Shown: piece after piece, positions 18,489 through 50,346 of the stretch | How positions within the stretch are numbered: position 1 is the first letter of the stretch | Layout: each line of letters starts with the position of its first letter | From: a virus | Lineage: Duplodnaviria > Heunggongvirae > Uroviricota > Caudoviricetes | Direction: 5' to 3' (one strand) | Length of the DNA stretch: 64,000 nt | Virus record (IMG/VR): IMGVR_UViG_2718217789_000006 | Position numbers and translations under genes: made by a program | The notes under the pieces: generated by a model | Database searches by the model: none | What the model saw: the letters and a program-made list of their open reading frames with translations, nothing else | What the model was told of the DNA's origin: nothing

Positions 18489-21081
18489 TCTGGTTATTGA
18501 TTTGAGTCTGGATGCGGCCCGGTTTGATGAACAGATGGCCCGGGTACGCCGTCATTTTTCCAGTCTGGAGGCGGATGCCAGAAAAACCGCCAGTACTGTT
18601 GAACAGGGGCTGAGCCGACAGGCGCTGGCGGCACAAAAAGCCGGGATATCAGTCGGACAGTATAAGGCTGCCATGCGCACACTGCCCGCACAGTTCACGG
18701 ATATTGTCACTCAGCTTGCCGGTGGTCAGAATCCCTTCCTTATCATGCTGCAGCAGGGGGGGCAGATCAGCGATTCATTCGGTGGACCGCTCAGCCTGCT
18801 TACCCTGCTGAAGGAGGAACTTCTCGGGATCAGGGATGCCTCTGAATCATCAGAGGAGTCGCTGTCAGATACGGCAAATGCACTGGCTGAAAATGCCCGG
18901 AATGCCGGTGAGCTGGGACGATTTATGTCGGTGGCCCGTGTGGCGGCAGGTGGCGGGGTTGCCGTACTGGCCGCGCTTGCTGCCGCCGCCTGGCAGGCAG
19001 AGCAGGCTGACCGGGCCTTATTGCGTTCACTGATCCTGACCGGAGGGGCGGCTGCCACCACAACGGCAGAATTGTGGAAAATGGCCGGGGTGATCAGCGA
19101 TGAAGCCGGTGGTGGTATCAGACAGGCGGCAGAAAATCTGGCCCGTCTGGCAGAAAGCGGGAAATATACCGCCGGGCAGCTACGGATCATGGGGGAAACC
19201 TCTCAGAGATGGCTGCAGACGGTGGGGGACGATGCCGGGAAGGTGGAAAAAGCCTTTGAAGGGATTGCAGCAGATCTGGTGAAGGCGCTGGCCTCCCTGA
19301 ATCAGCAGTATAACTTCCTGAGCGTTTCCCAGTTACGCCATATTGATGAGCTTGAGCGCACGAAAGGTAAACAGGTTGCGGTGACGGAGGCGATGTCCCT
19401 GTTTGCGGATGTCATGAATGCACGTCTGGAGCAACTTGATAAAGCGGCCACGCCGGTGGAAAAAATCTGGGACGATGTTAAAACCTGGACTTCTGACGCA
19501 TGGGCATGGATAGGTGATCATACACTGGGGGCACTCAGTCTGATCACTGACGTGGTGGCCGGAACCGTTGAACAAGTGAAGCTGCTGCTTGTGCAGGGGG
19601 ATCTGGCGCTGGCTGAATTTATTCAGTCAGCCTGGGAAACGACAAAGAATGTGCCCGGCGTTGGTGCGTTGTTTGGTGAACTGGCAGAAGAGAACCGCGT
19701 ATTTATTGAGAAAACAAAACGCGATGAACTGGCGCTGAGAAAATCCATTGCGGAACGGGATGCGCGTATACGCCAGGGGGAAATGGGGTACATCAACCGC
19801 TCGCGTGCAACAGGCGTCAGCAAAGGTCCGGGGCAGCAGGAAGCCGTCAGCCGTCTGGCTGAAGAGCTGACAGGTAAAAAGCATACATCACCGAAAACGC
19901 GCTCTGCCGGGGAGAGGGAAGAGGAGCAGGCAAGAGAGGCTCTGCTTGCCCTTGAAGCTGAGCTCAGGACGCTGGAAAAACACAGCGGTGCGAATGAGAA
20001 AATCAGCCGGCAGCGCCGTGATTTATGGAAGGCGGAAAGTCAGTATGCGGTCCTGAAAGAGGCTGCCACGAAACGACAGTTATCTGAGCAGGAAAAATCC
20101 CTGCTGGCGCATAAAGACGAGACGCTGGAGTACAAACGCCAGCTGGCTGAGCTGGGCGACAAGGTTGAATACCAGAAACGCCTGAATGAGCTGGCACAGC
20201 AGGCGGTGCGGTTTGAAGAGCAGCAGAGCGCGAAGCAGGCCGCCATCAGCGCAAAAGCCCGCGGTCTCACTGACCGTCAGGCGCAGCGGGAGTCTGAAGC
20301 GCAGCGTCTTCGGGACGTGTACGGTGATAATCCGGCTGCGCTGGCGAAGGCCACATCGGCACTGAAGAACACCAGGTCTGCGGAGGAGCAGCTTCGTGGA
20401 AGCTGGATGGCCGGGCTGAAGTCCGGCTGGGGCGAGTGGGCGGAAAGTGCGACGGACAGTTTTTCGCAGGTTAAAAGTGCTGCCACGCAGACCTTTGACG
20501 GTATTGCACAGAATATGGCGGCGATGCTGACCGGTGCAGAGGCAGACTGGCGGGGATTCACCCGTTCGGTGCTGTCCATGATGACAGAAATCCTGCTTAA
20601 ACAGGCCATGGTGGGCATTGTCGGGCGTATCGGCAGCGCCATTGGCGGTGCTTTCGGTGGTGGTGCATCTGCTTCCTCGGGGACGGCCATTCAGGCTGCG
20701 GCGGCGAACTTCCATTTCGCGACCGGAGGATTTACGGGGACGGGCGGCAAATATGAGCCTGCGGGGATAGTTCACCGCGGGGAGTTTGTTTTCACGAAAG
20801 AGGCAACCAGCCGGATAGGTGTGGGGAATCTTTACCGTCTGATGCGCGGCTATGCGGAAGGTGGTTATGTGGGTGGTGCCGGAAGTCCGGCGCAGATGCG
20901 GCGGGCGGAAGGTATTAATTTTAATCAGAACAATCACGTGGTGATTCAGAACGACGGCACCAACGGACAGGCGGGGCCGCAGCTGATGAAGGCGGTGTAT
21001 GACATGGCCCGCAAGGGGGCGCAGGATGAGCTCCGGCTGCAGTTGCGTGATGGCGGTATGTTATCGGGGAGCGGGCGATGA
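18469..21081 (+). CDS. H: Tail tape measure protein H
   Basis: 870 aa, lambda gpH N- and C-termini conserved. Confidence 0.95.
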   Translation: MSQPAGDLVIDLSLDAARFDEQMARVRRHFSSLEADARKTASTVEQGLSRQALAAQKAGISVGQYKAAMRTLPAQFTDIVTQLAGGQNPFLIMLQQGGQISDSFGGPLSLLTLLKEELLGIRDASESSEESLSDTANALAENARNAGELGRFMSVARVAAGGGVAVLAALAAAAWQAEQADRALLRSLILTGGAAATTTAELWKMAGVISDEAGGGIRQAAENLARLAESGKYTAGQLRIMGETSQRWLQTVGDDAGKVEKAFEGIAADLVKALASLNQQYNFLSVSQLRHIDELERTKGKQVAVTEAMSLFADVMNARLEQLDKAATPVEKIWDDVKTWTSDAWAWIGDHTLGALSLITDVVAGTVEQVKLLLVQGDLALAEFIQSAWETTKNVPGVGALFGELAEENRVFIEKTKRDELALRKSIAERDARIRQGEMGYINRSRATGVSKGPGQQEAVSRLAEELTGKKHTSPKTRSAGEREEEQAREALLALEAELRTLEKHSGANEKISRQRRDLWKAESQYAVLKEAATKRQLSEQEKSLLAHKDETLEYKRQLAELGDKVEYQKRLNELAQQAVRFEEQQSAKQAAISAKARGLTDRQAQRESEAQRLRDVYGDNPAALAKATSALKNTRSAEEQLRGSWMAGLKSGWGEWAESATDSFSQVKSAATQTFDGIAQNMAAMLTGAEADWRGFTRSVLSMMTEILLKQAMVGIVGRIGSAIGGAFGGGASASSGTAIQAAAANFHFATGGFTGTGGKYEPAGIVHRGEFVFTKEATSRIGVGNLYRLMRGYAEGGYVGGAGSPAQMRRAEGINFNQNNHVVIQNDGTNGQAGPQLMKAVYDMARKGAQDELRLQLRDGGMLSGSGR

Positions 21082-36394: not shown

Positions 36395-36579
36395 TGACGT
36401 TCTCCGAAAATACCAAGTTCAAGAAGAGCAATTCGGGAAAGTATGGAATTATCATTGAGCAGATAAGGCTCATATTTCCTCATATTAATGGCATCTTCAG
36501 TAAACTCCCGGTTACTGAGCAGAACACCAATATCAAAACAACCTTCAGACGTATTAACGTTTGGTAATAACGTTTCCAT
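36391..36579 (-). CDS. dicB: Cell-division inhibitor DicB homolog
   Basis: 62 aa, METLLPNVNTSEGCFDIGV…FTEDAIN… closely resembles K-12 DicB. Confidence 0.8.
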   Translation of the reverse strand: METLLPNVNTSEGCFDIGVLLSNREFTEDAINMRKYEPYLLNDNSILSRIALLELGIFGERQ

Positions 36580-36756
36580 TATCGCGTCCTCAACAATGAA
36601 TTTTGTGATGCAGTGCCTGGTGCCTCCAGGTGACGTTAACCAGTTAACAATTAACGCCGGATTAGTTGATGCTCGTTACGCCCGTAAAATACCGCCTTAC
36701 TGCTTTAACTGTTCCGCGTGCGCATAGCCGCATTCACCGCATCACAAAATTCACTT

Positions 36757-36796
36757 TAAAAAGGGCGGATATCCGTTTCCGCCGAATCACCAGAAA
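36757..36796 (-). ncRNA. dicF: DicF-like small RNA candidate upstream of dicB
   Basis: Minus-strand sequence TTTCTGGTGATTC-GGCGGAAACGGATATCCGCC-CTTTTT: DicF-like 5' end plus terminator hairpin and U-run, about 180 nt upstream of dicB. Confidence 0.4.
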
Positions 36797-38110: not shown

Positions 38111-38215
38111 GTTCTTACGCCTCGGGCTGGCTACTTAACCCCTGACCACTGCCTGGTAACTCGAAGTATTGCCCTGCATTCTGTGGGGCGGGGTGGGTTG
38201 GTATGAAAAGAAGGA

Positions 38216-38252
38216 TACCCATAGGTATTTAAAAAGTAAATACCCATGGGTA
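38216..38252. promoter_or_regulatory. OL-like operator pair (TACCCATAGGTA and TACCCATGGGTA) overlapping a leftward promoter
   Basis: Two 12-bp TACC-N4-GGTA sites 13 bp apart at 38216..38227 and 38241..38252; minus-strand TTTACC-17 nt-TAAATA promoter-like elements overlap them. Confidence 0.5.
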
Positions 38253-38294
38253 AATTTTTGCGGTGTCTTAACTGGTGACTAGTTGTTTGGTGAG

Positions 38295-38714
38295 CTATGA
38301 TGCGTTTTGTGCTTTCTTTTTACGGATTTCTTCGTAGATCATATTGTAATACTGTTTTTTCTCTTCAAGAGTTTTTAATAATTTATCCGCTTCACTTTCT
38401 GGCAGTTCGTCTAAGAGATCTAAAAAAATACGTTGTCGTGGCGTTAGAACCCTTGTTTCATAACTGGAGGCTGTGTTCGTTGATGATGAAACGATACCAT
38501 CCATCCATCCCCGGGGTAACCCAAAGGACTCTTCGATAATCTCCACCATATCATCAGCGATCCGTTTTTTTCCCTTTTTCCCCTCTGGGTACAACATTCT
38601 TGATACATAAGAAGGCTCGCGCCCGATCTTTCTGGCCACGTTAACCGCTTTACCATCGCATTTCTCATCACGAATTTTGATGAGTTGCTGTCGTCTAAAT
38701 TCATATTTGTCCAT
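38295..38714 (-). CDS. Immunity repressor, DicA/RacR-like, lacking a C-terminal peptidase domain
   Basis: 139 aa; HTH …NVARKIGREPSYVSRML…; C-terminal …LTPRQRIFLDLLDELPESEADKLL… resembles the DicA C-terminus; divergent to the cro-like gene. Confidence 0.6.
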   Translation of the reverse strand: MDKYEFRRQQLIKIRDEKCDGKAVNVARKIGREPSYVSRMLYPEGKKGKKRIADDMVEIIEESFGLPRGWMDGIVSSSTNTASSYETRVLTPRQRIFLDLLDELPESEADKLLKTLEEKKQYYNMIYEEIRKKKAQNAS

Positions 38715-38734
38715 AGGTAAATAATAGATGCGAT

Positions 38735-38785
38735 TACCGCAAGGTAAACAACCTGTGGGTATTGGCTTTTGTTTACCTGTGGGTA
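38735..38785. promoter_or_regulatory. OR-like operator cluster between repressor and cro-like genes
   Basis: Three TACC-N4-GGTA-type sites (TACCGCAAGGTA 38735..38746, AACCTGTGGGTA 38750..38761, TACCTGTGGGTA 38774..38785) in the 100-bp divergent intergenic region. Confidence 0.5.
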
Positions 38786-38814
38786 TTCTTTGCTGTGTTT
38801 ACTAAGGAGTAGCT

Positions 38815-39096
38815 ATGGAAGAATTAAGAATATTTCTCAATTCTCTTTCGTCAGATGAACAGCGTATGTTTGCATGCGAGTGTGGTACCAGCATCGGTTA
38901 TCTAAGAAAGGCATTGAGTAAAGGTCAAGTGTTAGGGGCATCGTTATGTGTCCTTATTGAGCGAGCCAGTAATGGTGAAGTTACACGTCAGCAACTAAGG
39001 CCTTTTGATTGGATGAATATTTGGCCCGAGCTGGAAGATACCAAAACGTTAACACAACCACTTTCTAGGAGCTTGATTCATGAAAATCAAGCATGA
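38815..39096 (+). CDS. Cro-like regulator (YdaS/DicC family)
   Basis: 93 aa; …ASNGEVTRQQLRPFDW… resembles YdaS-type proteins; AAGGAG RBS. Confidence 0.55.
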   Translation: MEELRIFLNSLSSDEQRMFACECGTSIGYLRKALSKGQVLGASLCVLIERASNGEVTRQQLRPFDWMNIWPELEDTKTLTQPLSRSLIHENQA

Positions 39097-39505
39097 ACAC
39101 ATCCGCATGGCGATGAATGCCTGGGCGCGTCCTGATGGCGAAAAAGTTCCAGCAGCTGGAATAACCCAGGCTTATTTTGAGTTGGGTATGACGTTCCCAG
39201 AACTGTATGACGACAGCCATCCGGAAGCCCTGGCTCGCAATACCCAGAAAATTTTCCGCTGGGTAGAGAAAGACACCCCTGATGCTGTTGAAAAAATGCA
39301 GGCTCTGTTACCGGCGATCGAAAAGGCGATGCCGCCTTTGCTGGTGGCCCGTATGCGCAGCCACAGTTCTGAATATTACCGTGAGATCGTCGAACGGAGG
39401 GATCGGCTGGTGAAGGATGTCGATGATTTTGTTGCGTCAGCGGTTGTTTTGTATGACCAGATGAATCGCGGCGGCCCGGCAGGGAATGCTGTGGTGATGC
39501 ACTAA
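39080..39505 (+). CDS. YdaT-like (CII-analog) protein
   Basis: 141-aa ORF overlapping the cro-like 3' end, in the position of Rac ydaT. Confidence 0.45.
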   Translation: MKIKHEHIRMAMNAWARPDGEKVPAAGITQAYFELGMTFPELYDDSHPEALARNTQKIFRWVEKDTPDAVEKMQALLPAIEKAMPPLLVARMRSHSSEYYREIVERRDRLVKDVDDFVASAVVLYDQMNRGGPAGNAVVMH

Positions 39506-43316: not shown

Positions 43317-43494
43317 TTTTATGGATCACCTTTCTGATTGATTTCATATTGGCGAGGTGACGTGAGTTAAGTAGAATTGCTGCGGGTGCCTGAGGCTGTC
43401 TGCCTCAGGCATGAACACCAAAAGGCAGATAGAGAAAGCCCCAGTTAACATTACGCGTCCTGTAAGACGCTCAACATTAATCTGAGGCATATGG

Positions 43495-44619
43495 ATGCGG
43501 ATGAAAGAATTAAATAAATTCAGAGTGATAGACCTCTTTTGTGGGGCAGGTGGATTATCTTATGGTTTTCTTCATGGAGAGATGTCTGACTACTTTGAAA
43601 GTATCCTTGCTATTGATAATAATGCTGCAGCTATAAATACCTACAATGCCAATTTTGGTTTGCATGGAGTTCAGGCAAATATTGAGGAGTGGGCATCCAG
43701 CAATACTGTTCCTGAGGCTGATGTGGTCATAGGTGGCCCCCCGTGTCAGGGATTCAGTTTATTGAATAAGAATCGTTATGGTGATCACCGAAGAGCATTG
43801 TGGGAGCCTTATATGGATGTCATTGAGCGTTCAAGGGCTTGTATGTTCGTCATGGAAAATGTCCCCGGATTGCTGATAAGCGATGAGTTTGCGGACATTA
43901 CGTTTAGAGCGAAATCCATGGGCTTTATTCTGCTTAATCCAATGGTGTTGAATACTGCTGACTATGGAGTACCTCAGACAAGAAAACGAACGATAGCAAT
44001 CGGTATCAAACGAGAACTCTTCGATGTGCATAGTATTCCGGCGTTCCCGCCAGCACCAACGCATCGTTCCCCTGATAAGGATGTCGCTTTGCCTGAATGG
44101 GTCTGTACGCGTGATGCAATTGGTGACTTACCTGCTCCTGTTGGAACTGATATTCGTAATGAACTTCCTCCGCTGAACTTACATTTTGGGCGTAATCCCA
44201 CACCTGTTTCTCTGGAGCGATATAAAGCGGTTCCACCAGGAGGTAACCGTTTCGATTTACAGAAAAAAAGACCTGATATAACCCCGGCGTGCTGGCTAAA
44301 AAAGAAATCTGGAGGGACCGATTTGTTTGGACGTCTGTGGTGGGACAGACCTTCAGTAACGATTCGTACTGAGTTTTTCAAACCGGAGAAAGGGCGATAT
44401 TTACATCCGGAAGAGGATCGGCCAATAACTCATCGTGAGGCAGCGAGATTAATGTCTTTTCCTGATAATTTCATTTTTACCGGTTCAAAAACTGAGATTG
44501 CAAAGCAGATCGGGAATGCTGTTCCACCGCTATTTGCGGCAAAAATCGCACAATATGTGTATGGAGTTTTGCAGGGACGGTATAAGAATAACATCAGTAA
44601 GAATAGTCAAGCAGCCTGA
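43495..44619 (+). CDS. DNA cytosine-5 methyltransferase
   Basis: Motif I DLFCGAGG, motif IV GGPPCQGFS, motif VI ENVPG; GAGG RBS 7 nt upstream. Confidence 0.85.
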   Translation: MRMKELNKFRVIDLFCGAGGLSYGFLHGEMSDYFESILAIDNNAAAINTYNANFGLHGVQANIEEWASSNTVPEADVVIGGPPCQGFSLLNKNRYGDHRRALWEPYMDVIERSRACMFVMENVPGLLISDEFADITFRAKSMGFILLNPMVLNTADYGVPQTRKRTIAIGIKRELFDVHSIPAFPPAPTHRSPDKDVALPEWVCTRDAIGDLPAPVGTDIRNELPPLNLHFGRNPTPVSLERYKAVPPGGNRFDLQKKRPDITPACWLKKKSGGTDLFGRLWWDRPSVTIRTEFFKPEKGRYLHPEEDRPITHREAARLMSFPDNFIFTGSKTEIAKQIGNAVPPLFAAKIAQYVYGVLQGRYKNNISKNSQAA

Positions 44620-44632
44620 AGGAAATCCAGAA

Positions 44633-45511
44633 ATGAATGGAGATTTGGTTGACAGCATAGTTGGTTTTGCTGAAGCCAGAAAGGAGTTTCATGCCCAATT
44701 GTTACTGAATACGCTCACAATTAATACTGCCGGAGTTGTTAGTAACGCAGATAGCAGTAACAAAAACAGTAAAGCTATAGCAAGAGAAATTGCTCGCTTC
44801 TTGCAGGCTGAAACGATTGGTGAACGTGTTGCAGGGCAAACATCTGGTAATCAGTTTGAGAGTATCTGCGCAGAGTTTATAGAAAAAACCTTTTTTAAAC
44901 TCAGCCACTTACGCCCTGGAAAATGGAATGTACATCAGGTTTCTGGTAGAAACAGATTAGAGATAGCTAAATATGAACAATATGCCCATCTTATAGCATT
45001 GGATAGTGCTGCAAAAAGTAATCCTCAGCTAGCTGCTGCACTGGGGAGTGATTATACGATTTCACCAGATATTATTGTTGAAAGAGAACCTGAATGTGAT
45101 CAAGTTATCAACAGTCCTGAATTACTGGTGGATGATTCTGTTACCCGCATGTCAGCTCTCAGGAGTTCGAATGGTGGGAAACCAATATTACACGCAAGTA
45201 TTTCCTGCAAATGGACAATAAGAAGCGACCGGGCCCAGAATGCTCGTTCTGAGGCATTAAATCTTATTCGCAACCGTAAGGGAAATCTCCCTCATGTAAT
45301 GGTTGTTACTGCTGAGCCTACTCCAAGTCGTCTGGCGTCTATTGCTCTTGGTACTGGTGATATAGATTGCGTGTATCATTTTGCGCTTTATGAACTTATA
45401 TCAGCAGTTGAAATACTGGGGCTCAGCGATGCAGCTGACATGCTTTCCGTGATGGTTAATGGTAAAAGATTAAAGGATATTTCTGATCTTCCCTTGGATC
45501 TTGCAGTCTGA
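44633..45511 (+). CDS. Putative type II restriction endonuclease paired with the methyltransferase
   Basis: 292-aa ORF starting 13 nt after the methyltransferase stop with AAGGA RBS; PD…K-like segment (…SPDIIVERE…ISCKWT…); assignment by context. Confidence 0.45.
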   Translation: MNGDLVDSIVGFAEARKEFHAQLLLNTLTINTAGVVSNADSSNKNSKAIAREIARFLQAETIGERVAGQTSGNQFESICAEFIEKTFFKLSHLRPGKWNVHQVSGRNRLEIAKYEQYAHLIALDSAAKSNPQLAAALGSDYTISPDIIVEREPECDQVINSPELLVDDSVTRMSALRSSNGGKPILHASISCKWTIRSDRAQNARSEALNLIRNRKGNLPHVMVVTAEPTPSRLASIALGTGDIDCVYHFALYELISAVEILGLSDAADMLSVMVNGKRLKDISDLPLDLAV

Positions 45512-48784: not shown

Positions 48785-49843
48785 ATGCTTAATACTGTAA
48801 AAATATCCAGCTGTGAGTTAGTCAACGCCGACTGCCTGGAATTTATCCGGTCGTTACCCGAAAATTCTGTTGACCTGATAGTCACGGACCCGCCGTACTT
48901 TAAAGTGAAGCCCGAGGGCTGGGATAACCAGTGGACGGGTGATGAGGATTACCTGAAATGGCTGGACCAGTGTCTGGCGCAGTTCTGGCGGGTGCTGAAA
49001 CCTGCCGGAAGTCTTTACCTGTTCTGTGGCCATCGCCTGGCATCTGATATCGAAATCATGATGCGTGAACGCTTCAGTGTGCTGAACCATATTATCTGGG
49101 CGAAGCCGTCCGGACGCTGGAACGGGTGCAACAAGGAAAGCCTGAGGGCGTATTTCCCCGCCACAGAGCGCATTCTGTTCGCGGAACATTATCAGGGGCC
49201 GTATCGTCCGAAAGATGCCGGGTATGAGGCGAAGGGCAGGGCACTGAAACAGCATGTGATGGCTCCGCTGATTTCTTACTTTCGTGATGCGCGTGCTGCC
49301 CTGGGGATAACGGCAAAACAGATAGTGGATGCCACAGGAAAGAAAAACATGGTGTCGCACTGGTTCAGTGCCAGTCAGTGGCAGCTACCGAACGAAAGCG
49401 ATTATCTGAAATTACAGGCGCTGTTTGCCCGGGTGGCAGAAGAGAAGCATCAGCGGGGTGAACTGGAGAAGCCCCACCACCAGCTGCTGGAGACGTATAC
49501 TTCACTGAACCGGCAGTATGCGGAACTACAGAGTGAATATAAGCATCTGCGGCGGTATTTTGGCGTGACGGCGCAGGTGCCGTACACGGATGTGTGGACG
49601 CATAAACCGGTGCAGTACTATCCCGGGAAACATCCGTGCGAAAAACCGGCAGAAATGCTGCAGCAGATAATCAGTGCGAGCAGTCGTCCGGGTGACCTGG
49701 TTGCAGATTTCTTCATGGGGTCGGGTTCGACAGTCAAAGCCGCGATGGCGCTGGGGCGTCGTGCAACTGGCGTTGAGCTGGAGACTGAACGTTTTGAGCA
49801 GACGGTCAGGGAAGTACAGGATTTAGTCAGTCAGAACGGATGA
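48785..49843 (+). CDS. Orphan amino-group DNA methyltransferase (N6-adenine or N4-cytosine, DPPY type)
   Basis: N-terminal DPPY motif (…LIVTDPPYF…), C-terminal AdoMet motif (…DFFMGSGST…); no adjacent nuclease. Confidence 0.75.
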   Translation: MLNTVKISSCELVNADCLEFIRSLPENSVDLIVTDPPYFKVKPEGWDNQWTGDEDYLKWLDQCLAQFWRVLKPAGSLYLFCGHRLASDIEIMMRERFSVLNHIIWAKPSGRWNGCNKESLRAYFPATERILFAEHYQGPYRPKDAGYEAKGRALKQHVMAPLISYFRDARAALGITAKQIVDATGKKNMVSHWFSASQWQLPNESDYLKLQALFARVAEEKHQRGELEKPHHQLLETYTSLNRQYAELQSEYKHLRRYFGVTAQVPYTDVWTHKPVQYYPGKHPCEKPAEMLQQIISASSRPGDLVADFFMGSGSTVKAAMALGRRATGVELETERFEQTVREVQDLVSQNG

Positions 49844-49951
49844 TATTGCAGAATTAACCGGGTATCAGGTACGCCCCGAAAATTTTAAATGTCTCACAAT
49901 TCAGACGGTTGACAGTTGTCTGGTTTGCGGGGAGTTTGTTAAAAGAAACTG

Positions 49952-50067
49952 GCATGGTGAATCCCCCTGAGCGGAGGGGCATATCAGCGCAGGTGTTTCT
50001 ACTCTATCCTTTCTGTGCGGGTTCAGGTGCTGATACTGAACTCACCGGGAGGCACCCGGCACCATGC
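49952..50067 (+). ncRNA. Conserved structured non-coding element (candidate sRNA), copy 2
   Basis: Same reverse-complementary outer arms and flank hairpins as copy 1, with a different central segment. Confidence 0.35.
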
Positions 50068-50091
50068 ATATGGTTAACAGACACGTAGCGA

Positions 50092-50117
50092 AGCCCCTCT
50101 CCGGAGGGGCTTTTTTT
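50092..50117 (+). terminator. Intrinsic terminator upstream of nanS-p
   Basis: AGCCCCTC-TCCG-GAGGGGCT hairpin followed by T7. Confidence 0.65.
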
Positions 50118-50346
50118 ATGGGCAAAAAAAGCCCGCGCTGGGAGACGCGGGCGGCAAGGAATAAACAACAAAACGTGAAGTAATATTTCAGCTGGCGAAT
50201 AATACCCCATGGTAATCACTCTGCGCAACTGCGCGGCCTTTTTCGAATTGCGGGCTGTAAGTCTCCCTTCTGCCATTGTCCTGTAACTTCCGAACTTCAG
50301 CCCGCTCTTTATCTGATTCAGTACACTATCCCGGCCGGGAGGATTC

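Follow-up and report, generated by a model that had tools for sequence, protein, structure and literature searches.

That lambdoid prophages of Escherichia coli O157 can carry repressors without a peptidase is an idea known in general terms since 2009–2011. In the Sakai strain the repressors of Sp4, Sp6, Sp9 and Sp10 have no peptidase, and Sp6, Sp9 and Sp10 are spontaneously inducible but not inducible by mitomycin C (Asadulghani et al., 2009; PMC2669165). Small antirepressors under LexA control, whose genes follow a dinI gene, remove the short repressors of the Gifsy prophages (Lemire et al., 2011; PMC3121763), and in Qin repression by DicA is lifted by Rem, while dicBp also turns on spontaneously (Ragunathan et al., 2023; PMC10448788). 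Bistable switches have been described for DicA/DicC (PMC10448788) and for PaaR2/YdaS (PMC8630535). Here we analyse an immunity region (positions 38216–38785) in the IMG/VR virus record IMGVR_UViG_2718217789_000006, a stretch of 64,000 nucleotides (nt) that we call the window. In the window, the right-hand portion of an Sp11-like lambdoid prophage (prophage 1) is followed in tandem by a second lambdoid prophage (prophage 2), and the immunity region under study is that of prophage 2. An earlier note, made from the sequence alone, had proposed that a DicA/RacR-like repressor of 139 amino acids without an autocleavage domain is surrounded here by five operator sites of the form TACC-N4-GGTA.

We conclude that the region is probably the immunity switch of a lambdoid prophage lying beside an Sp11-like prophage at ydfJ, and that it would combine a non-cleavable mosaic repressor with right (OR) and left (OL) operators and, most likely, stochastic takeover by Cro.

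Results

A lambda-like array of operator sites surrounds the repressor gene

The repressor gene occupies 38295–38714 on the minus strand. Exact matches to TACC-N4-GGTA near it begin at 38216, 38241, 38735 and 38774, and a site with a single mismatch lies at 38750–38761. The count of five given in the earlier note therefore needs amendment: four sites around the gene are exact, but the fifth near it carries one mismatch, and the fifth exact match stands alone at 50203. Across the whole window the five exact matches compare with 0.32 expected, and none of 100 shuffles reached five.

The upstream sites fall on the divergent promoters PR and PRM. OR1 (38774–38785; TACCTGTGGGTA; exact) lies within the PR spacer and overlaps the PR −10 element; OR2 (38750–38761; AACCTGTGGGTA; one mismatch) abuts the PR −35 element, with its centre at about −41.5 from the predicted PRM start; OR3 (38735–38746; TACCGCAAGGTA; exact) overlaps the PRM −35 element. 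Their offsets from the repressor ATG are −71, −47 and −32. On the far side of the gene, OL2 (38241–38252; TACCCATGGGTA; exact) is directly upstream of the −35 element of the leftward promoter PL, and OL1 (38216–38227; TACCCATAGGTA; exact) is within the PL spacer, its final TA opening the −10 element; the two are 25 bp apart.

PR (38762–38789, plus strand) was read from the sequence as TTGGCT (38762–38767), a 16-nt spacer and TATTCT (38784–38789), and is predicted to drive ydaS–ydaT and the replication genes. A promoter scan placed PRM at 38721–38748 on the minus strand, with TTTACC (38748–38743), a 16-nt spacer and TATTAT (38726–38721). PL (38212–38240, minus strand), with TTTACT (38240–38235), a 17-nt spacer and TATCCT (38217–38212), was read from the sequence, the family consensus and the downstream genes, and is predicted to drive the operon DUF1391–ydfB–ydfC–dicB–exo–xis–int. 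The predicted PRM start coincides with the A of the repressor ATG (38714), and the PRM −10 element ends 6 nt before that ATG without a Shine–Dalgarno sequence; a leaderless repressor mRNA is therefore predicted. The same TAgAAT-N6-ATG arrangement, again with no Shine–Dalgarno sequence, recurs across the repressor family, and the mRNAs of lambda cI and of CP-933P paaR2 are leaderless (PMC8630535).

The arrangement resembles the CI/OR–OL system of lambda: of three right operators the middle or third is weak, PR and PRM diverge, the repressor mRNA is predicted to be leaderless, and PL carries a pair of left operators. Unlike lambda, the sites are 12 bp rather than 17 bp long, OR2 and OR3 are spaced by 15 bp, there are two left sites instead of three, and the repressor has no S24 domain. 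Sequence comparison points to the TACC-N4-GGTA sites as operators of a lambda-style OR1–3/OL1–2 layout that is conserved across many bacteria.

Two further sites deserve mention. The isolated exact match at 50203–50214 (TACCCCATGGTA), which lies 80 bp past the prophage 2 copy of the small RNA STnc100, is probably a chance occurrence, because it has neither a partner site nor an equivalent in prophage 1. A sequence at 38709–38720 (TGTCCATAGGTA) has two mismatches and extends over both the predicted start of PRM and the start codon of the repressor; as it is not conserved among related loci, it is a weak extra site or chance. An Rfam scan of the region placed neither DicF nor any other RNA family on the sites, a weak match of an Rfam miRNA to the OL hairpin being discarded as an artefact of the palindrome.

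The layout is conserved in related loci

We compared 41 loci that encode relatives of the repressor DNA-binding domain, drawn from Gamma- and Betaproteobacteria (Enterobacterales, Aeromonas, Xanthomonas, Stenotrophomonas, Neisseria, Burkholderiales, Ferrovum and others), together with coliphage mEp043. Nearly all have TACC-N4-GGTA slots at −72/−73, −47/−48 and −32/−33 from the repressor ATG, and a further pair of sites, 24–26 bp apart, lies downstream, with the same OL geometry in 30 loci. The related loci contain 118 exact sites in 253 kb, where about 4 would be expected (one per 65,536 positions), and a single 70-bp slot ahead of the repressor ATG accounts for 61 of the 118.

The three right slots behave differently. 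The OR1 slot (−72) is exact in 35 of 38 loci and the OR3 slot (−32) in 26 of 37, while the OR2 slot (−47) is exact in only 1 of 34 and usually reads GGTT. The central four base pairs are YRYR at OR1 (32/38) and OR2 (29/34), but at OR3 in only 6 of 37. OR2, an imperfect site, would probably depend on cooperativity; a strong outermost operator, a weaker-matching middle one and a third of different character together fit the logic of lambda. A near-invariant CAATACC beside OR2 in related loci corresponds to the TTG of the PR −35 element. In the family PL, OL2 is followed at once by TTGACx and, after 7–8 nt, by OL1, whose end TA begins the −10 element, giving a spacer of 17 nt. These comparative data bear out very strongly the OR-like and OL-like positions proposed in the earlier note, and with them its identification of an immunity region.

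The closest described relative is mEp043. Its DNA-binding domain is 76% identical to that of the window repressor, its Cro is of the same type, TACC-N4-GGTA sites stand at −72, −47 and −32, and what its depositors independently annotated as 'putative PL' falls exactly on the OL pair. Its CI, however, has 228 amino acids and an S24 peptidase tail, and for that reason is expected to be SOS-cleavable, whereas the window repressor has a tail of the DicA/Sp10 type. Judged by its DNA-binding domain, by the operator consensus and its matching offsets, and by the homologous cro, the window repressor would belong to the mEp043-type immunity group. A literature search for the TACC-N4-GGTA motif and for mEp043 operators returned nothing relevant, and no published operator study of mEp043 was found. 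Two mEp043 records were compared in order to place the c-1 clear-plaque mutation, but they are identical over 5.2 kb around cI and so were uninformative.

Some relatives depart from the pattern. The most distant (35–38% identical in the DNA-binding domain), from Advenella (loci L039 and L043), have no TACC-N4-GGTA; about 40–60 bp upstream of their repressor start there are instead TACCGC-N8-GCGGTA-like inverted repeats, which suggest the same half-site with a longer spacer. In four Klebsiella loci with S24-type relatives (L006 and L009–L011) the OR1 and OR3 slots are kept while OR2 is replaced by TTTGCTATATTTT, and a scan of these loci found no YdaS-like cro open reading frame (ORF) at the expected place opposite the repressor.

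The repressor joins domains of two families

The 139-residue repressor matches phrog_5736 (transcriptional regulator; E 6e-70), and comprises a DNA-binding domain (residues 1–75), a disordered linker (77–86) and a helical hairpin of the DicA/Sp10 type (88–139). It gave no match in Pfam, the peptidase family PF00717 included; tblastn of the window with the S24 C-terminal domains of two relatives found nothing; and its translation contains neither an Ala–Gly nor a Cys–Gly dipeptide at which cleavage could occur. The lack of a LexA/cI-type autocleavage domain, as claimed in the earlier note, is thereby confirmed. A longer protein with a peptidase, made from an alternative start, had been named as a possible refutation; it is excluded, because the ORF opens at the first start codon after a stop and cannot be extended. 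Since the repressor has no peptidase, RecA-stimulated autocleavage is excluded as a route of induction.

A protein database search returned three groups of relatives: near-identical E. coli proteins of 139 residues; full-length relatives of 135–140 residues (85% identical in Salmonella, 54–57% in Serratia and Yersinia); and PF00717 (S24) proteins of 221–242 residues whose first 75–90 residues are 64–82% identical to the repressor, which make up 79 of the 120 best matches. In alignment A1 the common part stops at ...LPRGWMDGI (residue ~75), and past this point no resemblance is left between the two architectures. Even with the threshold relaxed to E 10 the N-terminal domain matches no Pfam model, while DicA, GtgR and the Sp10 repressor all match HTH_3 (PF01381). 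An AlphaFold (AF2) model, with a mean pLDDT (predicted local distance difference test score) of 82 and about 86–92 for the N-terminal domain, has helices at 3–18, 23–30, 34–40 and 54–63 in a compact N-domain, a disordered linker at 77–86 and hairpin helices at 92–103 and 106–138. A sequence search of the PDB gave noise only. Foldseek matched the N-domain to XRE-type domains, the best being Rep of the SPC32H Rep–Ant complex, controller proteins including C.Esp1396I, HigA and the 434 repressor, all at E ~1e-3 or weaker. The N-domain shares only its fold, not HTH_3 homology, with DicA and GtgR.

The tail has other kin. The last ~50 residues are 33% identical to DicA residues 84–129 (E 2e-7), the NCBIfam DicA model matches residues 86–136 (E 1.9e-5), similarity to Gifsy-2 GtgR is weak (E 0.007), and 36 of 50 residues (72%) are identical in the tail of the Sakai Sp10 repressor ECs_1941, which among the Sakai peptidase-less repressors is the closest. 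The LPE(S/A)E motif, the length of ~135–140 residues and the short helical tail that mark the short repressors of the DicA/Gifsy/Sp10 type are all present. The repressor thus draws its DNA-binding domain from one family and its tail from a different one. It can be described neither as a CI that was truncated nor as a simple homologue of DicA; it is DicA-like in its tail only, and residues 1–75 belong to a family usually fused to an S24 peptidase. The DicA/RacR-like label of the earlier note thus holds for DicA within these last ~50 residues but not for RacR, to which BLASTP found no similarity (best E 2.3).

The Sp10 repressor shares with that of the window its length of 139 residues, the related tail and the lack of a peptidase, and its neighbours (DUF1391, a YdaT-type CII and a DnaC-type loader) are similar; unlike the window repressor, however, it has an ordinary HTH_3 DNA-binding domain, and its immunity region contains no TACC-N4-GGTA. 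Because DNA-binding domains and operator sites differ, the two prophages are expected to be heteroimmune. DicA of Qin and the Gifsy repressors GfoR and GtgR likewise have ~135–140 residues, no cleavage site and a related C-terminal LPESE helix, and Qin has the same leftward ydfABC–dicB operon; DicA and GtgR differ in their HTH_3 DNA-binding domains and in the antirepressors Rem and GftA, neither of which has a homologue in the window.

Cro, YdaT and the exchangeable tail

Opposite the repressor, a YdaS-like protein of 93 residues (38815–39096, plus strand; Pfam YdaS_toxin, E 9e-6) is the predicted analogue of Cro. It is followed by YdaT (39080–39505, plus strand), the analogue of CII, which is ~96% identical to PDB 8bt1 (E 1e-88). 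At the ydaS/ydaT junction, TTGATTCATGAAAATCAA (39073–39090) matches exactly the CP-933P YdaT site TTGATT-N6-AATCAA, which has been footprinted at the same junction (PMC9986795); this exact match implies a PRE-like, YdaT-activated leftward promoter for establishment of the repressor. With CP-933P the window thus shares a YdaS-type Cro, a near-identical YdaT, the ydaS/ydaT operator, a leaderless repressor gene and the logic of a bistable switch. It differs in that PaaR2 is a different repressor, with 18-bp repeat operators of half-site consensus GTTTAGTAA, and in that CP-933P has a paaA2–parE2 toxin–antitoxin downstream; the window has none of these features.

Homologues of the YdaS-like Cro (37–73% identical) stand opposite the repressor in 32 related loci, regardless of the repressor tail. 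At least 28 of the fetched loci encode repressors with the G.SM serine motif of S24 peptidases; a DicA-type tail occurs in E. coli, Yersinia (47% identical to the DicA tail, E 5e-11) and Arsenophonus; and some betaproteobacterial relatives of the DNA-binding domain have other short tails. The conserved unit appears from these comparisons to be DNA-binding domain, OR and cro, with an exchangeable tail.

Distribution and genetic setting

The window derives from E. coli O157:H7, and over a 1-kb test stretch it is 100% identical to strains 9000, Z570 and others. Of 5426 complete E. coli genomes, 822 (15%) have an intact copy of the repressor gene, among them O157:H7, O145, O111 and the enteropathogenic strain E2348/69, and RefSeq names its product 'hypothetical protein' there; 812 of these 822 genomes preserve both the ORF and the full set of five sites, with an identity of 95% or more.

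The boundary between Sp11 and prophage 2 lies at about 32041/32042, and the prophage 2 int gene at 32076–33371 (minus strand). The far end of prophage 2 is outside the window and adjoins ydfJ, so that prophage 2 occupies the ydfJ side of Sp11. Its identification with Sakai Sp12/CP-933P was considered and rejected, as Sp12 carries PaaR2 and prophage 2 is on the ydfJ side of Sp11. In RefSeq the immunity region is labelled 'hypothetical protein' (the 139-residue ORF), 'transcriptional regulator' (93 residues), 'toxin YdaT family protein', a helix–turn–helix replication initiator and a DnaC-like ATPase; to the left of the repressor gene lie DUF1391, ydfB, ydfC, dicB, exonuclease, xis and int.

Several RNA elements were noted in passing. 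A sok antitoxin RNA (43384–43564; Rfam, 61 bits) adjoins a cytosine methyltransferase and an NgoMIV-type restriction endonuclease (43501–45511). Homologues of the small RNA STnc100 (Rfam, 105 and 148 bits) occur downstream of the prophage 2 Q antiterminator gene (49923–50123, plus strand) and at the corresponding place in prophage 1 (1464–1636, plus strand), and a third, sub-threshold copy lies in the PL operon near dicB (36547–36765, minus strand).

Candidate triggers of induction

The earlier note had suggested a DinI-like gene and an Ant-like gene of prophage 1 as sources of an inducing signal; neither fared well. The DinI-like gene (31656–31898, minus strand) is an ordinary gene of the Sp11 right end, and together with its upstream sequence it matches that end in Sakai at 99.8% identity; it has no CTG-N10-CAG LexA box and no ORF downstream, whereas Gifsy-2 dinI is preceded by the LexA box TACTGTGTTTATATACAGT. 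A dinI–antirepressor operon of the Gifsy type was rejected on these grounds, and because identical copies end both tandem prophages. The identical DinI-like protein, with an atypical N-terminus and no LexA box, is found at the right end of each, beside the ydfJ attachment site (window 31656–32041; NZ_CP062771.1 2723661–2723903, corresponding to 18662–18904 of locus L053).

The Ant-like gene (5482–6051) encodes WP_001056806.1, a protein of 189 residues with P22_AR_N and ORF11CD3 domains, and covers positions 7–210 of the 317-position Ant profile, about two thirds; it is a truncated homologue of P22 Ant. It would be made late, because it lies between the lysozyme and spanin genes of the prophage 1 lysis cassette. 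Another O157 prophage (L049) encodes an identical protein at this position, where a gene of the same length, annotated 'phage antirepressor', is also present in Sakai Sp10 and Sp11; Sp10 is still not mitomycin C-inducible.

The LexA-box search around candidate antirepressors, which the earlier note had recommended, found none at the DinI-like gene. The only AT-rich near-match in the scan, at 48795 (TACTGTAAAAATATCCAG; 48792–48811, TACTGTAAAAATATCCAGCT), falls among the opening codons of a DNA methyltransferase gene situated downstream of Q, and was rejected as an antirepressor control element as it is not upstream of any small ORF. A tblastn search of the window found no homologue of GftA, of K-12 Rem or of the Rem-like protein WP_000984523.1 of O157, and a PHROG scan of the small early genes of prophage 2 detected no antirepressor; none is annotated in prophage 2.

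Discussion

The switch that we propose would work as follows. The repressor would bind the 12-bp palindromes TACC-YRYR-GGTA, presumably as a dimer formed through its C-terminal helical hairpin. Occupation of OR1 and of the intrinsically imperfect OR2 would cover PR and turn off the ydaS-like cro, ydaT and the replication genes; repressor at OR2 would also be positioned where activation of PRM is possible, and the overlap of OR3 with the PRM −35 element would provide negative autoregulation. OL2 and OL1, which bracket the PL −35 element and overlap its −10, would hold the ydfABC–dicB–exo–xis–int operon off. The YdaS-like Cro presumably acts on the same sites as the repressor. The DNA-binding domain, operators and cro would form an old cassette, mostly fused to S24 in other hosts and here joined to a tail of the DicA/Sp10 type. 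As the most likely route of induction we favour SOS-independent, stochastic takeover by Cro, as reported for Sakai Sp10, whose repressor has the same type of tail; a small trans-acting antirepressor of the Rem/GfoA type may be an extra input.

Other explanations touch the left operator and the repressor itself. The two sites downstream of the repressor gene could be mainly an intrinsic terminator rather than a left operator. A terminator scan reports the OL pair as a hairpin followed by a U-run (38206–38252, minus strand), possibly the intrinsic terminator of the PRM transcript; it has a 16-bp stem and a 5-nt loop followed by UCCUUCUUUU, lies 43 nt past the repressor stop codon, folds as RNA at −22.2 kcal/mol (z −7.0), and could end the PRM transcript before the PL operon. 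The pair is nevertheless kept in 30 loci, at distances of as much as 2.9 kb past the repressor ATG. A TTGACx −35 element invariably stands between its sites, a T-run is usually missing, and both sites are the same palindrome as in OR; they could serve two roles, but not that of terminator exclusively. Because the T-run is not conserved elsewhere, termination is at most a local addition and not the reason for the OL sites, and we consider a primarily terminator function very improbable. Nor do we give more than the slightest credence to the idea that the repressor is the decayed, shortened remnant of an S24-type CI in a dead prophage with a non-working switch. Most relatives of the DNA-binding domain do have 220–240 residues and an S24 domain, and many O157 prophages are defective (PMC2669165), but the C-terminal 50 residues form a distinct, confidently folded domain homologous to the tails of DicA and Sp10, the same architecture is found in Yersinia, Serratia and Arsenophonus, tblastn detects no S24 remnant downstream, and ORF and sites are kept in nearly all carrier genomes.

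The weightier question concerns induction. On a Gifsy/Qin model, a small antirepressor made elsewhere, either LexA-controlled and GfoA/GftA-like or Rem-like and encoded in the early operon of another prophage, would pull the repressor off its operators and so make prophage 2 respond to DNA damage or to another prophage's induction. The size of the repressor and its C-terminal LPESE motif match DicA and, weakly, GtgR, both of which are inactivated by antirepressors (PMC3121763, PMC10448788), and the top Foldseek match comes from a repressor–antirepressor complex. O157:H7 genomes moreover encode a Rem homologue (71% protein identity) in another prophage, beside a DicA orthologue with a tail 36% identical to that of the window repressor; antirepression in trans is therefore possible. 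Against this stand the failure to find a GftA or Rem homologue in the window or an annotated antirepressor in prophage 2, and the lack of a convincing LexA box before a small gene. The place that rem occupies in Qin and in another O157 prophage, flanked by hok/sok and the DUF968 gene, is taken in prophage 2 by the cytosine methyltransferase and NgoMIV-type endonuclease; and Sp10, with a tail 72% identical, is not mitomycin C-inducible in Sakai. On balance we think it rather unlikely that induction involves such an antirepressor.

The interpretation that we prefer, a non-cleavable mosaic repressor displaced stochastically by Cro, has its own weak points. A literature search found no binding experiment on the repressor or on any member of its DNA-binding family. 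PR and PL are only moderate matches to the sigma-70 consensus here (8 of 12 positions), conservation of the OL pair at this locus could partly serve termination, and prophage 2 may be otherwise defective. The route of induction is extrapolated by analogy from Sp10, which shares the tail but has another DNA-binding domain; should it be the DNA-binding domain to which antirepressors dock, little about the window repressor could be learnt from Sp10.

In kind, much of this is already known: the lambda-type switch, the non-cleavable repressor of the Gifsy/DicA/Sp10 type, the YdaS-type Cro and the YdaT-type CII. As far as our literature searches reach, the operator motif with its base-level map, a DNA-binding family outside Pfam, and the occurrence of one cassette with either a self-cleaving or a non-cleaving tail are undescribed. 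A repressor that RefSeq calls 'hypothetical protein' thereby gains a name and a testable operator (TACC-YRYR-GGTA, with OR1–3 and OL1–2 placed to the base), and a DNA-binding family that Pfam does not cover is defined.

Tentatively, and with doubt and support not far from balanced, we suggest an ancient cassette, made up of the DNA-binding domain, TACC-N4-GGTA operators and cro and spread through Gamma- and Betaproteobacteria, that recombines at the linker with S24, DicA/Sp10 hairpin or other tails, so that the mode of induction is swapped while immunity specificity is kept. If this is true, SOS-inducible phages, mEp043 among them, would be homoimmune with a non-cleavable repressor present in 15% of complete E. 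coli genomes, and this repressor would give its hosts a superinfection immunity that lasts through the SOS response. Such a natural domain swap between SOS-cleavable and non-cleavable repressors of one immunity specificity bears on how effector-carrying prophages of pathogenic E. coli may become uncoupled from induction by DNA damage.

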